Source: Vicinamibacterales bacterium (lineage in GTDB: Bacteria; Acidobacteriota; Vicinamibacteria; Vicinamibacterales; CAVVIG01). Taken from it: a DNA stretch of 64,000 nucleotides. Location of the stretch: NCBI GenBank assembly GCA_036268855.1, contig DATATJ010000197.1, forward strand, positions 2,315 through 66,314. Reading direction: 5' to 3'. A program made the position numbers and the translations under genes. The notes under the pieces were generated by a model. It ran no database searches. It was given only the letters and a program-made list of their open reading frames with translations, and was not told where the DNA came from. Shown here one piece after another: positions 5,847 to 53,099 of this stretch. Within the stretch, counting starts at the first letter, position 1, and each line of letters starts with the position of its first letter.

Positions 5847-6728
5847 CTATTTGATCGGGGCGATCTTCTCGTCCACCTTCACCTGGAACTGCCGGAAATT
5901 CGTGTAGGTCGCGGCGCCCGTCACCGTCGAGCCGTCCGCTCGCTGCAGGTACGACTCGCGCATGTCCTTCGGCACCAGCATGTGCAGCGCCGGCTCCGGC
6001 TGGTAGGTTACGTCGATGTCGGCGCTGAGCTGGCGATCTTCCGCTCGAATCGTGCTGCCGAGCACACGCCCCGTGGCTGGCTCGATCCAGAACCGGCCGG
6101 AGACCGGAAAGTCCTGGCCGCCGCTGGTCCGAATCATCGTGCCGGCCTCGACTTCGCGGTAGTCGACAGCCCATGCGCCGTCGGTGCGCGCCGCGTCCGC
6201 GGTTTCGACGTGGTTGAACAGGAACCGGTGCTGATTCTCGGGCATCAGCGCCCACAGCGCGAGCACCGGCACGTTGACGTTGCGAGTGACCGGGCCAACG
6301 TTGTACCGCGCGCTCTCTTCCTGGATCTGCTCGGCCTGCTTCGCCGTGGACATCGACGGCTGCAGGAACAGCTTCGCGAGCCGATCGGTCCGATCGTGCA
6401 CGGCCTTTCCGTCCACCTCGAACACATCGCGAAACTGGATCCACTGGTCACCGCCCTGGGGGCGCACCAGCAGGAGATCCGACTTCAGCTCGCGATGCTG
6501 CCCCGCTCCGCTATTCAGCAACCCGTACCGATCGAAGTGCGCGGGCGGACGCGCGTCCTGCTCGTACCTTTCCTGAGCGACCACGCCCGCGAAATCGTGC
6601 TCGTAGTGCGTCACGTACTCACCCGCACGCGCCAGCACCTCATCCACGTTCGTCGCCTGAGGCAAGAACGCGCTCGCCGCGGCCGCGGCCGCGAGCGCCG
6701 TCACGAAGCGAAAGGGAGCAGGTCGCAT
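5847..6728 (-). CDS. hypothetical secreted protein
   Basis: Internal ATG (CAT 6726-6728) gives MRPAPFRFVTALAAAAAASAF, a signal peptide. Coding-like composition. Lies 7 bp upstream of ku. No family recognised. Confidence 0.6.
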   Translation of the reverse strand: MRPAPFRFVTALAAAAAASAFLPQATNVDEVLARAGEYVTHYEHDFAGVVAQERYEQDARPPAHFDRYGLLNSGAGQHRELKSDLLLVRPQGGDQWIQFRDVFEVDGKAVHDRTDRLAKLFLQPSMSTAKQAEQIQEESARYNVGPVTRNVNVPVLALWALMPENQHRFLFNHVETADAARTDGAWAVDYREVEAGTMIRTSGGQDFPVSGRFWIEPATGRVLGSTIRAEDRQLSADIDVTYQPEPALHMLVPKDMRESYLQRADGSTVTGAATYTNFRQFQVKVDEKIAPIK

Positions 6729-9868: not shown

Positions 9869-9880
9869 CGGTCTGCACCC

Positions 9881-9928
9881 GATCCCCGATCCCCGATCCC
9901 TGATCCCTGATCCCTGATCCCGATTCCC
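9881..9928. repeat. heptanucleotide tandem array (gatcccc x2, gatccct x3, gatccc, gattccc), 48 bp
   Basis: Read directly from the sequence. With flanking bases the reverse strand is GGGAATC GGGATC AGGGATC x3 GGGGATC x2 GGG: eight G-runs of at least 3 with 3-4-nt loops. Six GATC sites. Lies between the SDR stop (9934) and the S58 start (9868). Confidence 0.95.
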
Positions 9929-9933
9929 GCCGT

Positions 9934-22663: not shown

Positions 22664-23130
22664 TGACGTTGTTTCTCGTCCATCACGGGGACGCCGTGAT
22701 GCCGGACGTCGACACGCGGCGTCCGCTCTCGCTGCGCGGACGCGAGGAGGTGACGCAGGTGGCGGCGCGGGCCGCCGCCATCGGCGCGAGGCCCGACGTC
22801 GTCTGGCACAGCGGCAAGCTGCGGGCGCGCCAGACCGCGGAGGAATTCTGGCGTGCGTGCAACGCCCTCGCCGAGCTGTCGGCGACGCGCGATCTGCAGC
22901 CCGCCGACCCGCCGGTCTGGATCCGCGACCGCCTGCGCGGCGAATCGCGCAACGTGATGATCGTCGGCCACTATCCGCATCTGCCCGATCTCCTCGCGCT
23001 GCTGACAGCCGCGCCGCCCGACGCCCATCCGCCGTTTCCCCAGCACGGCGTCGTCGCGCTGGAGTCGCTGGACGAGGGCGAGACGTGGAAGGAGATTTGG
23101 CGGGTGGAGCGGAGGGGAAGTGGGAAGTGA
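22663..23130 (+). CDS. SixA-like phosphohistidine phosphatase (histidine phosphatase superfamily)
   Basis: GTG at 22663 overlaps the DUF1684 stop by 1 nt. VTLFLVHHGDAV..RPLS..G..E..HSGKLRARQTAEE..VMIVGHYPHLPDL is collinear with SixA, but the RHG signature reads HHG. Confidence 0.7.
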   Translation: MTLFLVHHGDAVMPDVDTRRPLSLRGREEVTQVAARAAAIGARPDVVWHSGKLRARQTAEEFWRACNALAELSATRDLQPADPPVWIRDRLRGESRNVMIVGHYPHLPDLLALLTAAPPDAHPPFPQHGVVALESLDEGETWKEIWRVERRGSGK

Positions 23131-23158
23131 GAAGTTGGAAGGCAGAAGTTAGAAGTGA
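23117..23158. repeat. heptanucleotide purine-rich array (gaagtgg gaagtga gaagttg gaaggca gaagtta gaagtga)
   Basis: Read directly. The array begins in the last codons of the sixA-like CDS (stop 23128-23130) and extends into the convergent spacer. Confidence 0.9.
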
Positions 23159-23181
23159 AGGACGAAGTTCCTTCTGCCTTC
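23138..23181. terminator. candidate bidirectional terminator hairpin between convergent genes
   Basis: gaaggcagaag (23138-23148) is the exact reverse complement of cttctgccttc (23171-23181). That gives an 11-bp stem and a 22-nt loop. There is no clear U-tract. Confidence 0.4.
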
Positions 23182-23198
23182 TGCCTTGTAACTTGCGA

Positions 23199-31906: not shown

Positions 31907-31998
31907 CGGAATGGTGAGCTCTCTAGTTGGCCAATTAGTAAGTTGGTGAGTTGGTAATTGCAGCTGACGCACTTGAATCTTAATTTACCAACCGTCAT

Positions 31999-32046
31999 TT
32001 ACCAACTTACCAACTTACCAACTTACCAATCTACCAACTCACCAAT
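31999..32046. repeat. octanucleotide tandem array (ttaccaac x3, ttaccaat, ctaccaac, tcaccaat), 48 bp, in a low-G+C spacer
   Basis: Read directly. There is one more ttaccaac at 31985-31992. Reverse-complement words gttggtga/gttggtaa lie at 31942-31957. ttggtgagttggta (31943-31956) is a perfect 14-bp inverted repeat of taccaactcaccaa (32032-32045). Confidence 0.95.
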
Positions 32047-34983: not shown

Positions 34984-35042
34984 GTCCCGGTTAGACCGTC
35001 GGCCGCCATCCGACGTTTAAAAAAATGCCACACTGAGAAAAT

Positions 35043-36014
35043 ATGGCCGATTTAGTCTCTGCCGAGGGGCGCATTCTCGAGCAGATCCTCAACGCCAGCC
35101 ACGAAATCTGGCATGAAGGGCTTTCGCGGGACCGGTACGCTCGGTTTTTTGAGGCGCAGCGGCGCACGGCTTGGGGAGCCACCCGCCTCAGCCGGTGGGC
35201 TCTCGTCGACGGGATCGACGTCCTGGCGAGCGCCAAGGAGTACTCGCTGCGGGCCGTGCTGGACGGCCGCCCGATCGAGGTGGTGGGCATTGGCGCGGTG
35301 TTCACGCAGCCCGAACAGCGCGGCCGCCGTCATGCGCGCGATCTGATCGAACGGATGCTGGCTCGCGGCGCGCGTCGGGGCGCGGGGCTGGCGCTGCTGT
35401 TTTCGGAGATCGGCGCCGACTACTACGCACGCCTTGGCTTCATCCCGATGCCGACGATCGATCGCACGCTGGCCGTCGCCACGTCCGATCGCCATGGGGC
35501 GCCGGCCGCGATGATTCGCAGCGGGCACGACCGCGATCTCGACGCGATCGTGGCGATGAACCACACGCGCGCGAAGCCTTTCCGCTTTCACCTCGATCGC
35601 GACCGGGACCTGCTGAGCTACGCAATCACCAAGAAGCGTCTGCTCGCCGGATTCGGACGCGCGGGCGTCCGCGAAGTGCACTTCTTCGTCACGGAAGAAG
35701 GCACGACGGCCGTCGCGTACGTCGTCTTGAGCGTGCGCGGCGGACAGTGGACGCTCGAGGAATGCGGCGATCGCGATCCGAGCGGCGCGCGCGTCGGGGC
35801 GATCCTGCAGGCGTTGATTGCACGCGAGCCGGCACAGCGCCATCCGGCGATTCGCGCGTGGCTGCCGCCAGGGTTCCTGCCGCCGCAGGTGTCGATTGTC
35901 GCGACCTGCTCCGCGTCGGACGTCATGATGCTGCGTCCCCTGACACCGGACGCGGACGCAGCGCGGACGCTCGGCGTGGACGATGTGCTGTACTGGCGAG
36001 ACGATGTGTTTTAG
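35043..36014 (+). CDS. GNAT family N-acetyltransferase (two-domain, Eis-like layout)
   Basis: IGAVFTQPEQRGRRHARDLIERML (Q/RxxGxG/A acetyl-CoA motif) and YYARLGF. Confidence 0.7.
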   Translation: MADLVSAEGRILEQILNASHEIWHEGLSRDRYARFFEAQRRTAWGATRLSRWALVDGIDVLASAKEYSLRAVLDGRPIEVVGIGAVFTQPEQRGRRHARDLIERMLARGARRGAGLALLFSEIGADYYARLGFIPMPTIDRTLAVATSDRHGAPAAMIRSGHDRDLDAIVAMNHTRAKPFRFHLDRDRDLLSYAITKKRLLAGFGRAGVREVHFFVTEEGTTAVAYVVLSVRGGQWTLEECGDRDPSGARVGAILQALIAREPAQRHPAIRAWLPPGFLPPQVSIVATCSASDVMMLRPLTPDADAARTLGVDDVLYWRDDVF

Positions 36015-36048
36015 AGTGATGCGGGCCACCGAGGCACGGAGATGATCT

Positions 36049-36281
36049 GCCACAGAGCCACTGAGTCACCGAGAAGGCTCTTCTCGATGTTACCGATGGA
36101 ACGTTTGCCACAGAGCCACGGAGTCACCGAGAAGGCTCTTCTCGATGTTACCGATGGAACGTTTGCCACAGAGCCACGGAGTCACCGAGAAGGCTGTTCT
36201 CGATGTTACCGATGGAACGTTTGCCACAGAGCCACGGAGTCACCGAGAAGCCTCTTCTCGATGTCACCGGCGGGAAGGTTT
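36049..36281. repeat. 58-bp minisatellite, 4 head-to-tail copies
   Basis: The unit is gccacagagccacggagtcaccgagaaggctcttctcgatgttaccgatggaacgttt. Copies start at 36049, 36107, 36165 and 36223. Copies 1 and 3 each differ from copy 2 by one base. Copy 4 is 59 bp and diverged in its 3' half. A degenerate fifth copy lies near 36421. Each unit carries the stem cgagaag/cttctcg with a GCT loop. Confidence 0.95.
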
Positions 36282-36282
36282 G

Positions 36283-36362
36283 CCACAGAGCCACAGAGCC
36301 ACAGAGCCACAGAGCCACGGAGACACCGAGACACCGAGATACCGAGATACCGAGACACCGAG
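36283..36362. repeat. octanucleotide word array, 10 units (ccacagag x4, ccacggag, acaccgag x2, ataccgag x2, acaccgag)
   Basis: Read directly. It abuts the minisatellite, whose first 25 nt are built from the same words. Confidence 0.95.
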
Positions 36363-36501
36363 CGCGCCAACCTCGATCCCCGCGAAGGCATCGAGACACC
36401 GAGGACAATTACCCGGATCAGCCACAGAGTCACCGAGACAGTTCTTCTTTATGTGTCGGTGATAACAAAGACGAGCCCTTGAGATGAGTTTCGCTCAGTG
36501 T

Positions 36502-36542
36502 CTCCGTGGCTCTGTGGCTGTCGATCTCCGAGCCTCTGTGGC
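36502..36542. repeat. inverted copies of the minisatellite words next to the stop of the downstream gene
   Basis: ctccgtggctctgtggc (36502-36518) is the exact reverse complement of the first 17 nt of the 58-mer. ctctgtggc (36534-36542) is the reverse complement of gccacagag. Confidence 0.9.
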
Positions 36543-36553
36543 TCCGCGGCGAA

Positions 36554-38254
36554 TCACGAGCCACTCGACAGCTTCAAATCGAGCGGCTTGGTCTCCGCTT
36601 CGCCCAGCGAGAAGGTCCTCGCCCCGCTCCGCAGCGAGTTCAGGAAGTCGGGGTCGCCGATCTTCGCCGCGTCGATGTGCGCGAGTGCGACGGCGACGTA
36701 ATCGCCAGGCGGCAGGCCCGCGACCGTGAAGCGTCCGTCCTGATCCGGCCGCCCGATCTTGATGTATCGCGCGGCGTTGCTCCACAGGCTCTGATCCTGC
36801 GGAAAGATCAGCGCCGTGTAGTCGTGGGCCGCATCGCCGTGCGCGTCGGTGACGCGACCGACGATCGACGTCAACCGGCCCGTGAGCTCCACGTCCACAC
36901 CGCCGACGTCCTCACCCGGCTTGATGTCGATGCCGCTGTCGGTGACGTCCACGCCCCCGAGGCGCACCGCGCGCACATTCCACCCCGTCGGGAGGTTGAA
37001 CACCCTGACGCGCTTGACCCCCGGTCCCGATTTCAGCGCGAACGTGTTGTCGTCGAGAACCTTCCCCGGGCCCAGCCCCAAGAAAGACATCGTGGCGTCC
37101 GGACTCGTCGATTCCATCACCACCGACAGTGCATTGGTGGCGAGCGGCTGACCGGGATCGACGACGATTCGCCCGGTGACCGACACGGCCCTGGAGGCCA
37201 CGAGTCGAAGGTCTGCGATGTCCGCGCCGGCGACCGTGAGGTTCATGACGGCCGCCTCCTCGGTGAGCGGACGCGGTACGCCCTGCAAAATGTACTCGCC
37301 CGGCGTGAGATTGCGAGCCACGAATGAGCCGTCGGGACGAATCTGGACGCCGGCCGCCGAGTTCGTCCCCCCTGCTATCCTCTTGCCTACCATGAGGACG
37401 CCCACCATCGGCTGGCCGTGGCTGTCGACCACCGTGCCGCTGATGCTTGCGGTTGTCGTCGGCGACATCATGATGGTCACGTCGCTGACCGTCGTGCCGA
37501 TGCCCACGGCAATGCGCTGTGCCTCGGCCTCCTGCGTCGTCGCCGGAAAATACGTAGGTGCGTAGCCGACGCCATCGTCGGCGGCTCCGACCGCGCCCGG
37601 AAATTTTCGCCAGACGGCCTGGACGACGTAGTCGCCCGGCTGAAGTCCGAAGAGCCGGAACTCGCCGAGGTCGTCGGTCAAGACCATGCGACCGGAGGGC
37701 ATCAGCTGGCGCCGTCCGCCGATCGTTTGCGATCGCAGGGCCGCGACCTGCAGGTTCGACAAGGGCTCTCCGTATTCGTCCAGGGCGCGTCCGCGTACGA
37801 CGCTGCCGCGCGGCAGCGAAAAGTCGATCCGCTCCAGCGTCTGGTCGTCTTGCACCGTGAGCGTCGTGCCCCCCTCGAAGGGATGCGTTTGTCCGTACGA
37901 GAGTCCGATGTACGGGCTCTTCGACGCCGTCAGCGTGTAGCGGCCGGCGGGTAGTTCGCGGAATTCGTAGGCGCCATTCGCATCCGTCATCGTGACGTGA
38001 TTCGTGCTGCCGCCCACCGTGCCGCCGGAGACGCCGCCGCGGCCGTCCATCGGCATCAAAATCAACCGCGCCTGACGCAGCGGCTGACCCGTGTCGCCCG
38101 CCAGCACGTGTCCCCGAAGCACCGCGGTCGCGTGCGCGGGTTGCGTCGTCGTCGCCGGTGGCCCTGGCGGCGAGCCCGCCGATGAGCTCACTTGCGCGCG
38201 AGCGGCGGCCGCGACGAGCAGCAGCGCGGCGACAAGCGATGTGATCGTGCGCAT
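36554..38254 (-). CDS. secreted multi-domain carboxypeptidase-regulatory-like (CarboxypepD_reg) protein
   Basis: Internal ATG (CAT 38252-38254) gives MRTITSLVAALLLVAAAARAQ, a signal peptide. Repeated G.V.D..G.P......V........DG.F....L.PG.Y modules. Confidence 0.8.
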   Translation of the reverse strand: MRTITSLVAALLLVAAAARAQVSSSAGSPPGPPATTTQPAHATAVLRGHVLAGDTGQPLRQARLILMPMDGRGGVSGGTVGGSTNHVTMTDANGAYEFRELPAGRYTLTASKSPYIGLSYGQTHPFEGGTTLTVQDDQTLERIDFSLPRGSVVRGRALDEYGEPLSNLQVAALRSQTIGGRRQLMPSGRMVLTDDLGEFRLFGLQPGDYVVQAVWRKFPGAVGAADDGVGYAPTYFPATTQEAEAQRIAVGIGTTVSDVTIMMSPTTTASISGTVVDSHGQPMVGVLMVGKRIAGGTNSAAGVQIRPDGSFVARNLTPGEYILQGVPRPLTEEAAVMNLTVAGADIADLRLVASRAVSVTGRIVVDPGQPLATNALSVVMESTSPDATMSFLGLGPGKVLDDNTFALKSGPGVKRVRVFNLPTGWNVRAVRLGGVDVTDSGIDIKPGEDVGGVDVELTGRLTSIVGRVTDAHGDAAHDYTALIFPQDQSLWSNAARYIKIGRPDQDGRFTVAGLPPGDYVAVALAHIDAAKIGDPDFLNSLRSGARTFSLGEAETKPLDLKLSSGS

Positions 38255-38267
38255 CTTCACCTCGACG

Positions 38268-39932
38268 TCAGCGTGCGGCCACAGCGGCGAGTTCGAGCGC
38301 GATCGCCTTCTTCTCGTCGAGCCGGATAGACACCGCGGTTGCGCGATCGCGAATCCGCGCGAGGTACGCGGGGTCCGTCCACTCGCCGGGCTCGACATCC
38401 GCGGTGGCAAAGACGAAATAGTCACCCGCCGGCACGAGCACGCGGAATGTTTCATCCGCGGCGGGGCGACCGACGGCAACGTGCCGCGTCTGCGCCGTCC
38501 ATCGCGTGGCGTCCTGTGCGAAGACGATCACGTAGCAATCGCGGACCGGCTGACCGTTGGCGTCCACGACCTGGCCGGACAGCTCGCTCACGTGGTGCGT
38601 CATCTCGACCACGATGTTCGAGATCGTCGCATTGGGCGGCACGTCGATCCCGGTGTCGGTGATGTCCACGCCGGCGGCGAGGACACGGTTCAGCCGCCAC
38701 TTCGGGCCCGGATTGGGCGTGCGAATCAGAAAATGCCCCGCGGCCAGTTTGATCTCGAACGTGAGGTCCTCATGCACCTTGACGTTGACGTTACTGATCG
38801 ACGGGGCGTTGTTGCTCGCATTCAAATGCACGTCCGACGCCTTGAGGGGCGTCGCGCCCGGCTCAAAGACGATCCGGCCGCGGAGCACCGATGGAGGCGC
38901 CGTCACCAGCTGCAGGCCGGATACCTCCATGCCATTCACCGACACCGGCGCGTTGGCCGACTCGCCATCGGCGCGGCCGGAAACCCGCAGTATGAAATCG
39001 CCTGGCGTCACGCCGTTGATCGTGAACGTGCCATCAGGCCCCAGCGGCGCGCCGCTTCCGCCGACTGACATCCCGCCAACCTGTCGAAGGAGATTCACGA
39101 AGCCCGTCGTCACCGCACGCCCTTTGGAGTCGATCACCGAACCGCTGAGGCGTGTCGGCTGGACGGCGACAAGCGGCAGCGTGACGCCGCTGACCACCTG
39201 CCCGGCACCGACCGTGAGACGCTGCGCTTCGGCGACGTTCGCCGTTCCCGGATAGAACGTCGGCGAATAGGCGACCGAGATGCCGCTCGCGTTGAATACG
39301 AAATCGGGAAGCGTGCCGGCGACGAAGTAATCGCCGGGCGGCAGCCCGAACGCCCGAAACTCGCCGATGTCATTCGTGACGGCGTAACCCTGCGCGCGAA
39401 CGAGCCGGCGATCGCCGTTCGCGAACTGATACCGCATTGTCGTCACTTGCGCGTCCGGAACGGGATCGCCGAATTCATCGACGACTGTGCCTGCGATGAC
39501 GCCGGCATGCGACAGGGCGAAGTCCACCTTGTCGGCCGTCTGGCCGTCGGACAGGTCGAACCCTTTGCCGGGTCCCATGGCACGCATCGCGCCGAACGAC
39601 GTGGTGAGGTAGTTGGTCTTGCTGGCCGCCACGACGTACCGGCCGGCCGGGAGGCCGCTCACTTCGTAACGCCCGTTTGCATCGGTCTTGACGGCGCGCG
39701 GCTGGGGAAGGACGGAGGAGCCGACCCGAATATCAACGCGCGCGATTGGACGTCCAGTGCCCGCTTCGTGCACCCGACCGCGGATCATGCCGGTGCCGGC
39801 GGTCGGATGCGCGGAGGTGTCCCGCGCAGGCGCCTGCGTCTGCGCCGTTCCGCCCTCGGCGAGAGGAACGGAAGGCGCCGCAGCGGACGCCACGAAAGCC
39901 ACGAGGAAGATGAGCACTCGCGACACGGGCAT
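38268..39932 (-). CDS. secreted multi-domain CarboxypepD_reg protein, collinear paralog of 36554..38254
   Basis: MPVSRVLIFLVAFVASAAA is a signal peptide. MIRGRVHEAGTGRPIARVDI..TDANGRYEVSGLPAGRYVV and further modules. Lies 13 bp upstream of its paralog. Confidence 0.8.
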   Translation of the reverse strand: MPVSRVLIFLVAFVASAAAPSVPLAEGGTAQTQAPARDTSAHPTAGTGMIRGRVHEAGTGRPIARVDIRVGSSVLPQPRAVKTDANGRYEVSGLPAGRYVVAASKTNYLTTSFGAMRAMGPGKGFDLSDGQTADKVDFALSHAGVIAGTVVDEFGDPVPDAQVTTMRYQFANGDRRLVRAQGYAVTNDIGEFRAFGLPPGDYFVAGTLPDFVFNASGISVAYSPTFYPGTANVAEAQRLTVGAGQVVSGVTLPLVAVQPTRLSGSVIDSKGRAVTTGFVNLLRQVGGMSVGGSGAPLGPDGTFTINGVTPGDFILRVSGRADGESANAPVSVNGMEVSGLQLVTAPPSVLRGRIVFEPGATPLKASDVHLNASNNAPSISNVNVKVHEDLTFEIKLAAGHFLIRTPNPGPKWRLNRVLAAGVDITDTGIDVPPNATISNIVVEMTHHVSELSGQVVDANGQPVRDCYVIVFAQDATRWTAQTRHVAVGRPAADETFRVLVPAGDYFVFATADVEPGEWTDPAYLARIRDRATAVSIRLDEKKAIALELAAVAAR

Positions 39933-46927: not shown

Positions 46928-47010
46928 ATCACGAAATCACGAAGAACGCGGAGACTGTGTTTTGTGCAGAACGTCCTTCGTGAACTTCGTGATCTCCGTG
47001 CCTTCGTGAT
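46928..47010. repeat. inverted word repeats (atcacgaa x2 forward; cttcgtga(t) x3 reverse)
   Basis: atcacgaag (46936-46944) is the reverse complement of cttcgtgat at 46985-46993 and at 47002-47010. Lies in the spacer between the two CrtI-family paralogs. Confidence 0.85.
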
Positions 47011-48635: not shown

Positions 48636-48687
48636 GGGTGCCGGGGTGCCGGGGTGCCAGGTGCCAGGGTGCTAGGTGCTGGGTGCT
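48636..48687. repeat. 7-8-nt G-rich word array (gggtgcc ggggtgcc ggggtgcc aggtgcc agggtgct aggtgct gggtgct)
   Basis: Read directly. It starts 7 nt outside the start codon of the oxidoreductase gene (48629), in a divergent spacer. Confidence 0.95.
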
Positions 48688-52988: not shown

Positions 52989-53051
52989 AGCCTTCCAGTT
53001 TACCGCAAGGCCGCACTGGGCGGCAGACACACGGAAAAGCGAGCGTTTGGG

Positions 53052-53099
53052 GATGTGAGAATTTGAGGATGTGAGGATTTGAGAATTTGAGAATTTGCG
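53052..53099. repeat. octanucleotide tandem array (gatgtgag aatttgag gatgtgag gatttgag aatttgag aatttgcg), 48 bp, low G+C
   Basis: Read directly. Lies in the divergent spacer between pruA (start 52988) and the CN-hydrolase gene (start 53125). Confidence 0.95.

Follow-up and report, generated by a model that had tools for sequence, protein, structure and literature searches.

Within a 64,000-nucleotide stretch of DNA from a Vicinamibacterales bacterium (contig DATATJ010000197.1 of GenBank assembly GCA_036268855.1, positions 2,315 to 66,314; hereafter, the window), the genes of a GNAT acetyltransferase and a CarboxypepD_reg-repeat protein converge upon a 540-bp intergenic spacer at 36015-36553 that is filled with repeated octamer words of the form xCACxGAG. 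The evidence presented here indicates that this spacer is probably a gene-less, end-amplified copy of a dispersed family of foldback cassettes with xCACxGAG octamer arms, the words acting as nucleic-acid signals. The source assembly comprises 3.72 Mb in 319 contigs (66.7% GC) and is 71% complete, and all repeat copy numbers given below are those found as assembled.

Architecture of the convergent spacer

The outermost parts of the spacer form a 49-nt inverted repeat (I4, 36025-36073 against 36494-36542) whose arms are 82% complementary and lie 420 nt apart, and both sides share the same bipartite layout, namely a word cluster, a 7-nt spacer and a three-word cluster. On this basis the spacer constitutes a single bounded element. 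The left terminal inverted repeat (36025-36073, plus strand) consists of an outer cluster, GCCACCGAG GCACGGAG, at 36025-36041, the 7-nt spacer ATGATCT with its ATG at 36042-36048, and an inner three-word cluster, GCCACAGAG CCACTGAG TCACCGAG, at 36049-36073. The right terminal inverted repeat (36494-36550, minus strand; inverted repeats I1-I4 and direct family D5) mirrors it with an inner cluster at 36494-36518 (reverse complement of GCCACAGAG CCACGGAG ACACTGAG), a 7-nt spacer at 36519-36525 and an outer cluster at 36526-36550 (reverse complement of GCCGCGGAG CCACAGAG GCTCGGAG); the right-arm cluster reads CTCAGTG TCTCCGTG GCTCTGTGGC. An earlier note on this DNA, made from the letters alone, had pointed to reverse complements of the first 17 and 9 nt of a repeat unit on this side, and both are indeed present, the exact 17-mer at 36502-36518 and CTCTGTGGC at 36534-36542. 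The bipartite ends themselves, and the link to gene-bearing cassettes described below, were absent from that note.

Between the ends lies a plus-strand tandem array at 36048-36306, for which Tandem Repeats Finder reports a period of 58, 4.4 copies, 94% matches and a score of 439, the highest in the window. The array had been described as four copies of which the first and third each differ from the second by one base, and both Tandem Repeats Finder and alignment bear this out: these two copies match copy 2 at 98.3%, and the fourth shows 95.8% identity over 48 aligned nt, so that the copies are 96-98% identical. Each unit carries an ATG (for example, 36096-36098), GAACGTTTG, the words CCACAGAG CCACGGAG TCACCGAG, a small hairpin and a spacer. 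The hairpin, read directly from the sequence, has the 7-bp stem (CGAGAAG/CTTCTCG) and GCT triloop expected of it. The ten 8-nt words reported after the array are resolved as a plus-strand run of period 8 with 9.9 copies at 36284-36362, comprising GCCACAGA four times, GCCACGGA, GACACCGA twice, GATACCGA twice and a final GACACCGA. Two degenerate units of another type (36363-36454, plus strand; families D2 and D4) join words to the spacers ...caacctcgatcc and ...ggatcagccacagag; they include the additional degenerate unit previously placed near 36421, which occupies 36420-36454 with 83% identity over 35 nt (family D4). A short unique stretch of lower GC content at 36455-36493 forms the centre, or loop, of the foldback, as judged from sequence and predicted fold.

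Between 36065 and 36459 no frame of the plus strand contains a stop codon. The stop-free run noted earlier therefore exists, with its 3' extent slightly overstated at 36481, as frame 1 stops at 36460 and 36463; every plus-strand frame stops within or just past the loop (36460-36487). The three overlapping open reading frames (ORFs) that result had been judged not to encode a repeat protein, in agreement with which none of them matches Pfam.

The element abuts the stop codons of both neighbors. The GNAT gene (35043-36014, plus strand; PF13527, E 5.9e-10) stops 10 nt ahead of it, and the right end finishes 3 nt short of the stop of the CarboxypepD_reg-repeat gene (36554-38479, minus strand; PF13620, E 1.8e-31); profile matches thus sustain both annotations of the earlier note. 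No direct repeat of the kind left by target-site duplication is evident in the sequence at the element borders. The gene caller that we used, based on GC content at third codon positions, misses about one-fifth of genes and did not serve to judge whether 540 bp is exceptional for a spacer here.

A family of octamer words within the genome

Clusters of xCACxGAG words occur at approximately 34 places on some 30 contigs of this genome, and the triple word has 54 matches. Nine loci carry higher-order arrays in which three words and a locus-specific spacer recur with periods of 32-76 bp, namely C7, C60, C108, C161, C178, C179, both arms of C255, and the window. The words alone are common to these loci; the 33 nt of the 58-bp unit that lie outside the words have no match elsewhere in this genome or, by exact-pattern scan, in two public collections (genome contigs and metagenome contigs).

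The CACNGAG clusters belong to a larger population of approximately 370 tandem arrays in intergenic DNA, with periods of 6-10. Periods of 7 or 8 account for 291 of 371 short-period intergenic arrays, unlike coding arrays, which favor periods 6 and 9. An inverted partner lies within 2 kb, and mostly within 100 nt, for 211 of 362 arrays, compared with 92 in a reversed-sequence control. Spacers holding CACNGAG clusters number 16 tandem, seven convergent and one divergent, against a genome-wide ratio of 1167 : 359 : 351, so that these clusters nearly always adjoin the 3' end of a gene. Such a bias is compatible alike with tolerated insertion and with a role at the RNA level.

Two CACNGAG arrays run off contig ends (C179:14294-14510 and C255:1-483), which identifies these repeats as one cause of the breaks in this assembly. 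The window itself contains six further gene-less, intergenic arrays built from other words, at 9878-9929, 23115-23190, 31943-32045, 46928-47010, 48636-48687 and 53046-53097. Their words are GATCCCC, GAAGTnn/CCTTCTG, TTACCAAC with an inverted partner, ATCACGAA/CTTCGTGA, GGTGCCn and TTTGAGGA, and three of the six are hairpins.

The repeat unit and the left end of gene-bearing cassettes

Complete cassettes of this family begin with outer words and a short spacer that supplies an ATG and its ribosome-binding site; these are followed by three inner words, a gene of approximately 350 bp for a GxxExxY (PF13366) nuclease of the PD-(D/E)XK type, and inverted words 3' of the stop codon. The three inner words, 24 nt in length, are in frame and form eight codons. 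In one such cassette, on metagenome contig L188, two words are followed by ATGAATAGG, three words, the ORF and inverted words, and its left end aligns with 36025-36074 of the window at 84% identity over 51 nt. A related congener genome, G001, places an AGGAGG ribosome-binding site ahead of ATGGACTTG and three words. In the window, three words follow ATGATCTG at 36042 (ATGATCTGCCACAGAG...), and three words follow ATGGAACGTTTG in each 58-bp unit (ATGGAACGTTTGCCACAGAGCCACGGAGTCACCGAG). When the window module is aligned with the gene starts of L188, of a second metagenome cassette, L189, and of locus L047 in G001, 19 columns are invariant, and these cover the words. Since the unit carries this ATG-plus-three-words module, the 58-bp array represents a tandem amplification of the cassette left end.

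Amplified left ends occur elsewhere. Immediately upstream of the gene, both C255 (42 bp, 11.5 copies) and L189 (42 bp, approximately five copies, in frame) carry tandem arrays of the left end, and gene-less left-end arrays are found in G163, a genome from another family of the order. The two degenerate units of the window resemble the 42-bp units in the left arm of the C255 cassette, and BLASTN matches them to C255:200-225 at 96% identity over 26 nt, with more matches besides. We also considered the 58-bp unit as one whole decayed mini-hairpin, with a 28-nt arm, a GCT loop and a 27-nt reverse arm; by hand count the reverse half retains 15 of 28 matches, and the 32-42-bp units of other arrays are too short for such a design. 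We set this reading aside while retaining it as a possibility.

The overlap of words and codons is visible in the encoded proteins. Among the matches listed, the closest homologues share 70-80% identity with the C255 protein, are mostly 131-134 amino acids long and bear an N-terminal extension such as MNRPQSHGVTEIN. Read in frame, CCACAGAG CCACGGAG TCACCGAG, exactly the triplet of the window, gives the octapeptide PQSHGVTE. A word-encoded octapeptide is present in 85 of 119 close homologues, PQSHGVTE being the commonest with 25 cases, and linker-length variants among them differ by whole codons. The variable sites follow the word, at its positions 1 and 5, and thereby land on codon positions 3, 1, 2 and 3. 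Because variability tracks word positions in this way, we take the conserved signal to be the nucleic acid and not the peptide.

Association with GxxExxY genes

The gene-bearing relative in this genome lies at C255:492-854, where a 120-amino-acid GxxExxY protein (PF13366, E 5e-40; TIGR04256, E 1e-41) is encoded between inverted CACNGAG arrays. Altogether the genome has three GxxExxY genes and four PF05635 genes for four-helix-bundle "23S rRNA IVS proteins" (IVS, intervening sequence), and every one of the seven lies between inverted arrays of a word of its own. The type of word distinguishes the two payloads: arms of the form CAC-N-(A/G)-AG flank nine of ten GxxExxY cassettes and none of 17 four-helix-bundle cassettes in this and five related genomes (Fisher p = 2e-6, a value that overstates significance because the relatives are not independent). 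CACNGAG arms flank a GxxExxY gene also in G131, in G048 and in a Chitinophagaceae genome, all found by way of the words. Across a 151-genome sample of the order, a GxxExxY gene is present in 20 of the 23 genomes with the triple word and in 41 of the 128 without it (Fisher p = 9e-7). The spacer in the window has no GxxExxY ORF between its arms and is thus a gene-less copy.

All PF05635 genes examined are bracketed by inverted tandem-word arms (C180:5274-5519, C1:4419-4616, C179:6509-6793 and C103:27409-27690, with 13 more in L049-L062). Their arm words vary by cassette (GGCTGGAG, GGTTCCAG, TTTGAGGA, AATTGCA, GGTAGGT, GGGATTTG, TTAGTTGT and others), whereas GxxExxY cassettes keep to one flavor; TTTGAGGA, the arm word of the C179 four-helix-bundle cassette, is also the word of one of the other window arrays listed above. 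The L188 cassette (1501-1896 of a 461-kb metagenome contig) begins 4 nt ahead of the stop codon of an MmeI-type restriction-modification gene (PF20473, PF07669).

Other arrangements of the same arms were encountered. In L117, from a Vicinamibacterales metagenome-assembled genome (MAG; 2025-2585), CACCGAG x3 and CTCGGTG x3 arms surround a payload of approximately 515 bp with no GxxExxY match, from which it follows that CACNGAG-type arms can carry other cargo. Nested arms, with outer CACAGAG and inner CACGAAG triplets, occur at L021 (G048:C2:322700-323900), L024 (G048:C4:1974000-1975800) and L100 (a Thermoanaerobaculales MAG, 5980-6720). L021 and L024 share a structured insert of approximately 150 nt with a long perfect hairpin around ...cacgaacgagaNgaggcacgaata..., and the approximately 440 nt enclosed by each of L021 and L100 yielded no GxxExxY gene.

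The GxxExxY family is large, with at least 7,997 homologues at E <= 1e-10, and a literature search on GxxExxY and PDDEXK_3 found no functional study. The nuclease has no sequence relative in the PDB. Its weak top Foldseek matches are PD-(D/E)XK proteins (the R2 endonuclease domain, Cas4 SSO0001 and the I-Bth0305I catalytic domain), and we did not use them as evidence.

Distribution across the order and beyond

The triple word is patchily distributed. Within the sampled order it occurs 54 times in this genome, 47 times in G001 and 58, 21, 15, 13 and 10 times in five other genomes, most of the order having none; a reversed-pattern control gives 0-6 matches in the seven genomes that carry it. Across phyla, with one genome taken per species, at least 120 loci span Acidobacteriota, Planctomycetota, several proteobacterial classes, Gemmatimonadota, Verrucomicrobiota, Actinomycetota, Bacillota, Bacteroidota, Cyanobacteria and others. 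Among the matches listed, 73 of 119 triple-word sites have an inverted partner within 1.5 kb, at a gap below 200 nt in 65 of these 73 and of 450-700 nt in six.

The arms are near-uniform over 25 nt, with the consensus (gattca or tgaa)CCACrGAGrCACrGAGrCACrGAGa, and nearly all of 28 cross-phylum arm pairs have exactly three words per arm. Arm identity within a locus (0.65) exceeds that between loci (0.56), and the two arms of a pair are not exact complements.

Comparison with a congener

Congener G001, assembled in four contigs, retains the same gene pair. Its GNAT orthologue, whose protein is 74% identical, has the same downstream neighbor, and the CarboxypepD_reg-repeat gene is likewise kept. 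The orthologous spacer of approximately 230 bp holds a single module, tttGCCACAGAGTCACCGAGGCATAGAG, and neither a 58-bp array nor an inverted arm. This bears out the recent expansion that the near-identity of the copies had suggested. The array is dispensable in the congener, which argues against an essential local function.

The same contrast holds at other loci. C7, C161, C108 and C255 correspond to compact hairpins or single triplets in G001 and to expanded arrays here, and at C108 the flavor of the word differs between the two genomes. As positions are conserved in G001 while the elements there are compact, the sites of these elements are old and vertically inherited, and the arrays lineage-specific, with no sign of recent transposition.

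Interpretation and alternatives

We interpret the spacer, as stated at the outset, as an end-amplified copy of the cassette family that holds no gene. The copy in the window retains both bipartite ends, and the payload-sized 420 bp between them is filled with copies of the left-end module, in the order of the 58-bp unit (4.4 copies), the 8-nt words (ten) and two units of the second type. These copies most likely arose by replication slippage or unequal recombination between neighboring direct word clusters. One module would already have stood at the site in the common ancestor with the congener, and comparable expansions seem to have taken place at about nine CACNGAG loci in this lineage. The words would act at the level of nucleic acid, pairing into a long stem, and are probably recognized by a host protein or the nuclease of the cassette. 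As to the array, we consider it most likely tolerated and dispensable, serving at most as a large foldback at the 3' ends of two convergent transcripts.

Several observations weigh against this interpretation. All eight loci compared with G001 (five gene-less and three gene-bearing) are positionally conserved, the three gene-bearing cassettes standing at orthologous positions in both congeners. These eight orthologous comparisons revealed no insertion polymorphism, and no target-site duplication was found; direct evidence of mobility is therefore lacking. The association of words and gene is incomplete in both directions, in that the gene occurs in 41 genomes that lack exact triple words and the words occur in three that lack the gene, and payloads other than GxxExxY can sit in such arms (L117, L021 and L100). 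Gene-less hairpins outnumber gene-bearing cassettes at least tenfold. A six-frame hmmsearch of the window element with filters off gave a best E of 2 for a GxxExxY remnant, and since no remnant is detectable the element may never have held the gene. Finally, the AlphaFold model of the nuclease is of moderate confidence (predicted local distance difference test score, pLDDT, of 61) and has no Foldseek match at E <= 0.001.

A bolder and, in our estimate, unlikely extension of this interpretation would have the GxxExxY PD-(D/E)XK nuclease recognize the xCACxGAG triplets, or recombine at them, as its cognate sites, with gene and "address" traveling across phyla as one cassette system. Empty hairpins could then be landing pads or substrates acted upon in trans, the left arm would double as the first eight codons of the gene, and tandem left-end arrays might be scars of repeated nuclease-triggered break repair. 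If true, a large uncharacterized family would gain both a function and a defined DNA target. Paired word repeats have figured in genome annotations as unexplained "regulator sites" since 2009. A defined 24-nt sequence of three xCACxGAG words is in any case specifically associated with a nuclease gene across phyla, and these 24 nt also serve as codons downstream of an ATG and its ribosome-binding site, so that a signal for structure or recognition coincides, unusually, with the start of a coding sequence. The minisatellite expansions at approximately nine loci, all five of those compared being compact in the congener, offer a natural experiment on repeat destabilization. For annotation, stop-free arrays yield spurious ORFs, and gene callers extend GxxExxY proteins into repeats.

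An alternative that we regard as unlikely sees in the element a host-serving protein-binding array, with the triplets as operators for an IHF/HU-like DNA-bending protein or global regulator and the tandem modules multiplying the sites. An identical design in Geobacter metallireducens led its authors to suggest IHF/HU binding (PMC2700814), yet that paper offers no experiment and no regulator has been identified. Variability that follows the word rather than the codon or pairing register, arms that are not exact mutual complements and sites that are stable over speciation would all suit operators, but a core regulator would not be expected to have sites so patchy within a single order, with counts of mostly zero. 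The words, moreover, co-occur with and physically flank one gene family, and a single module suffices in the congener.

We hold equally doubtful the proposal that the element is a selected RNA structure whose long stem serves as a bidirectional 3'-end stabilizer, an RNase III site or an insulator for the convergent GNAT and CarboxypepD_reg transcripts. The G001 spacer, with neither array nor inverted arm, indicates that such a structure is not required at this locus. The spacer does fold strongly on both strands relative to shuffled sequences (plus, -221 kcal/mol, z -6.0; minus, -253 kcal/mol, z -7.3), the octamer run at 36284-36362 pairing with the right arm in the minimum-energy fold, but the arms are not kept as exact complements. 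A scan of 35000-37500 against Rfam at E <= 1 returned no match, so that the structured noncoding RNA envisaged in the earlier note goes without support, and so does its transcription terminator: no intrinsic-terminator pattern, no U-tract and no sigma-70 promoter pattern was found at the element. What speaks for an RNA role is the position of the element against both stop codons, the 16 tandem and seven convergent spacers against one divergent, and 23S rRNA intervening sequences of like layout, which are reported to be excised by RNase III (PMC4990558).

A purely local, neutral variable-number tandem repeat (VNTR) that grew by slippage from chance sequence and belongs to no family is very improbable: the 33-nt non-word part is unmatched elsewhere and the congener has no array, both as the earlier note had anticipated for a neutral repeat, yet the word core and bipartite inverted ends are common to dozens of loci here and to many phyla, in a family linked to a nuclease gene, the left end can be aligned to where complete cassettes start, and the reversed-pattern controls disfavor a compositional artefact. 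Mobilization as a repetitive extragenic palindromic (REP) or bacterial interspersed mosaic element (BIME) by a RAYT (Y1 transposase) is just as implausible, for although the family is dispersed, intergenic and palindromic, and the genome has genes for two Y1_Tnp proteins, the arms consist of octamers in tandem with no GTAG head, the units are direct and not alternating, the word arms flank GxxExxY genes, and a separate family, GTAGCGCGAAGGCTTyAGCCGAGCG, fits the REP description here.

That separate family, a GTAG-headed palindrome often in tandem, is found at C108:3376-3442 and also on C50, C113, C153, C200, C256, C279, C313, C74, C92 and C96, and at more than 20 sites in G001 with 91-97% identity; from its sequence it looks like the true REP family of this genome. 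The Y1_Tnp (RAYT/IS200-like) genes lie at C293:121-480 and C310:13638-13979.

Relation to known systems

The closest published likeness known to us is with the "class 2 global regulator sites" of G. metallireducens (Aklujkar et al., 2009; PMC2700814), which come in 21 pairs, with three tandem TCTCCGTS[Y] repeats on one strand and three on the other. The repeat TCTCCGTS[Y] is the reverse complement of CACGGAGA, a word found here. The pairs occupy the spacers of ordinary genes, some of them within operons, and binding by IHF or HU was the authors' guess. Compared by published description, the likeness extends to paired opposite-strand sites at variable distance with three words per site, all of which the window element displays. 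The description differs in concerning sequence motifs only, with no GxxExxY link, coding overlap or higher-order arrays, and in coming from another phylum. In the same genome, the IS110-family elements ISGme8 and ISGme9 are inserted at a fixed distance at class 1 paired octamer sites (GTTGCTYN; PMC2700814, table S4), from which it follows that word hairpins can be insertion targets for other mobile elements.

The layout also recalls the intervening sequence in helix 45 of Coxiella burnetii 23S rRNA with its S23p gene (PMC4990558), where a small, selfish-looking gene likewise occupies the loop of a long inverted-repeat stem within a transcribed region. The PF05635 relatives of S23p in this genome are likewise bracketed by inverted word arrays. 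Unlike the 23S rRNA intervening sequences, the window element lies between protein-coding genes rather than in rRNA and has no payload ORF, and the payload of the CACNGAG flavor is a PD-(D/E)XK nuclease, not a four-helix bundle.

Terminal inverted repeats of approximately 25 nt shared with a gene-bearing relative, gene-less copies in an excess of at least 10:1 and a patchy distribution are reminiscent of miniature inverted-repeat transposable elements (MITEs) or foldback elements. The family departs from MITEs in showing neither target-site duplication nor, in the eight comparisons, insertion polymorphism, and in that the associated gene is no known transposase. With REP sequences and BIMEs the element shares an abundance of intergenic palindromic repeats located mostly at gene 3' ends, so that the REP/BIME-like label of the earlier note was a fair analogy for a dispersed intergenic family; the label fails in that the window element has no 20-40-bp GTAG-headed palindrome in alternating orientation and its units are direct repeats. 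Structured noncoding RNA families in Rfam offer no match at E <= 1, and the arms are word arrays.

Like the short tandemly repeated repetitive (STRR) heptamers of heterocystous cyanobacteria, the words are tandem 7-8-nt units restricted to intergenic DNA. STRRs are plain tandem arrays, and to our knowledge their published description includes neither inverted pairing nor enclosed genes. As far as our literature searches show, the specificity of CACNGAG arms for GxxExxY genes, the overlap of arm and codons, the recurrent amplification of the left end and the positional stability between congeners are new. The element in the convergent spacer is a member of a widespread and barely described foldback cassette family.

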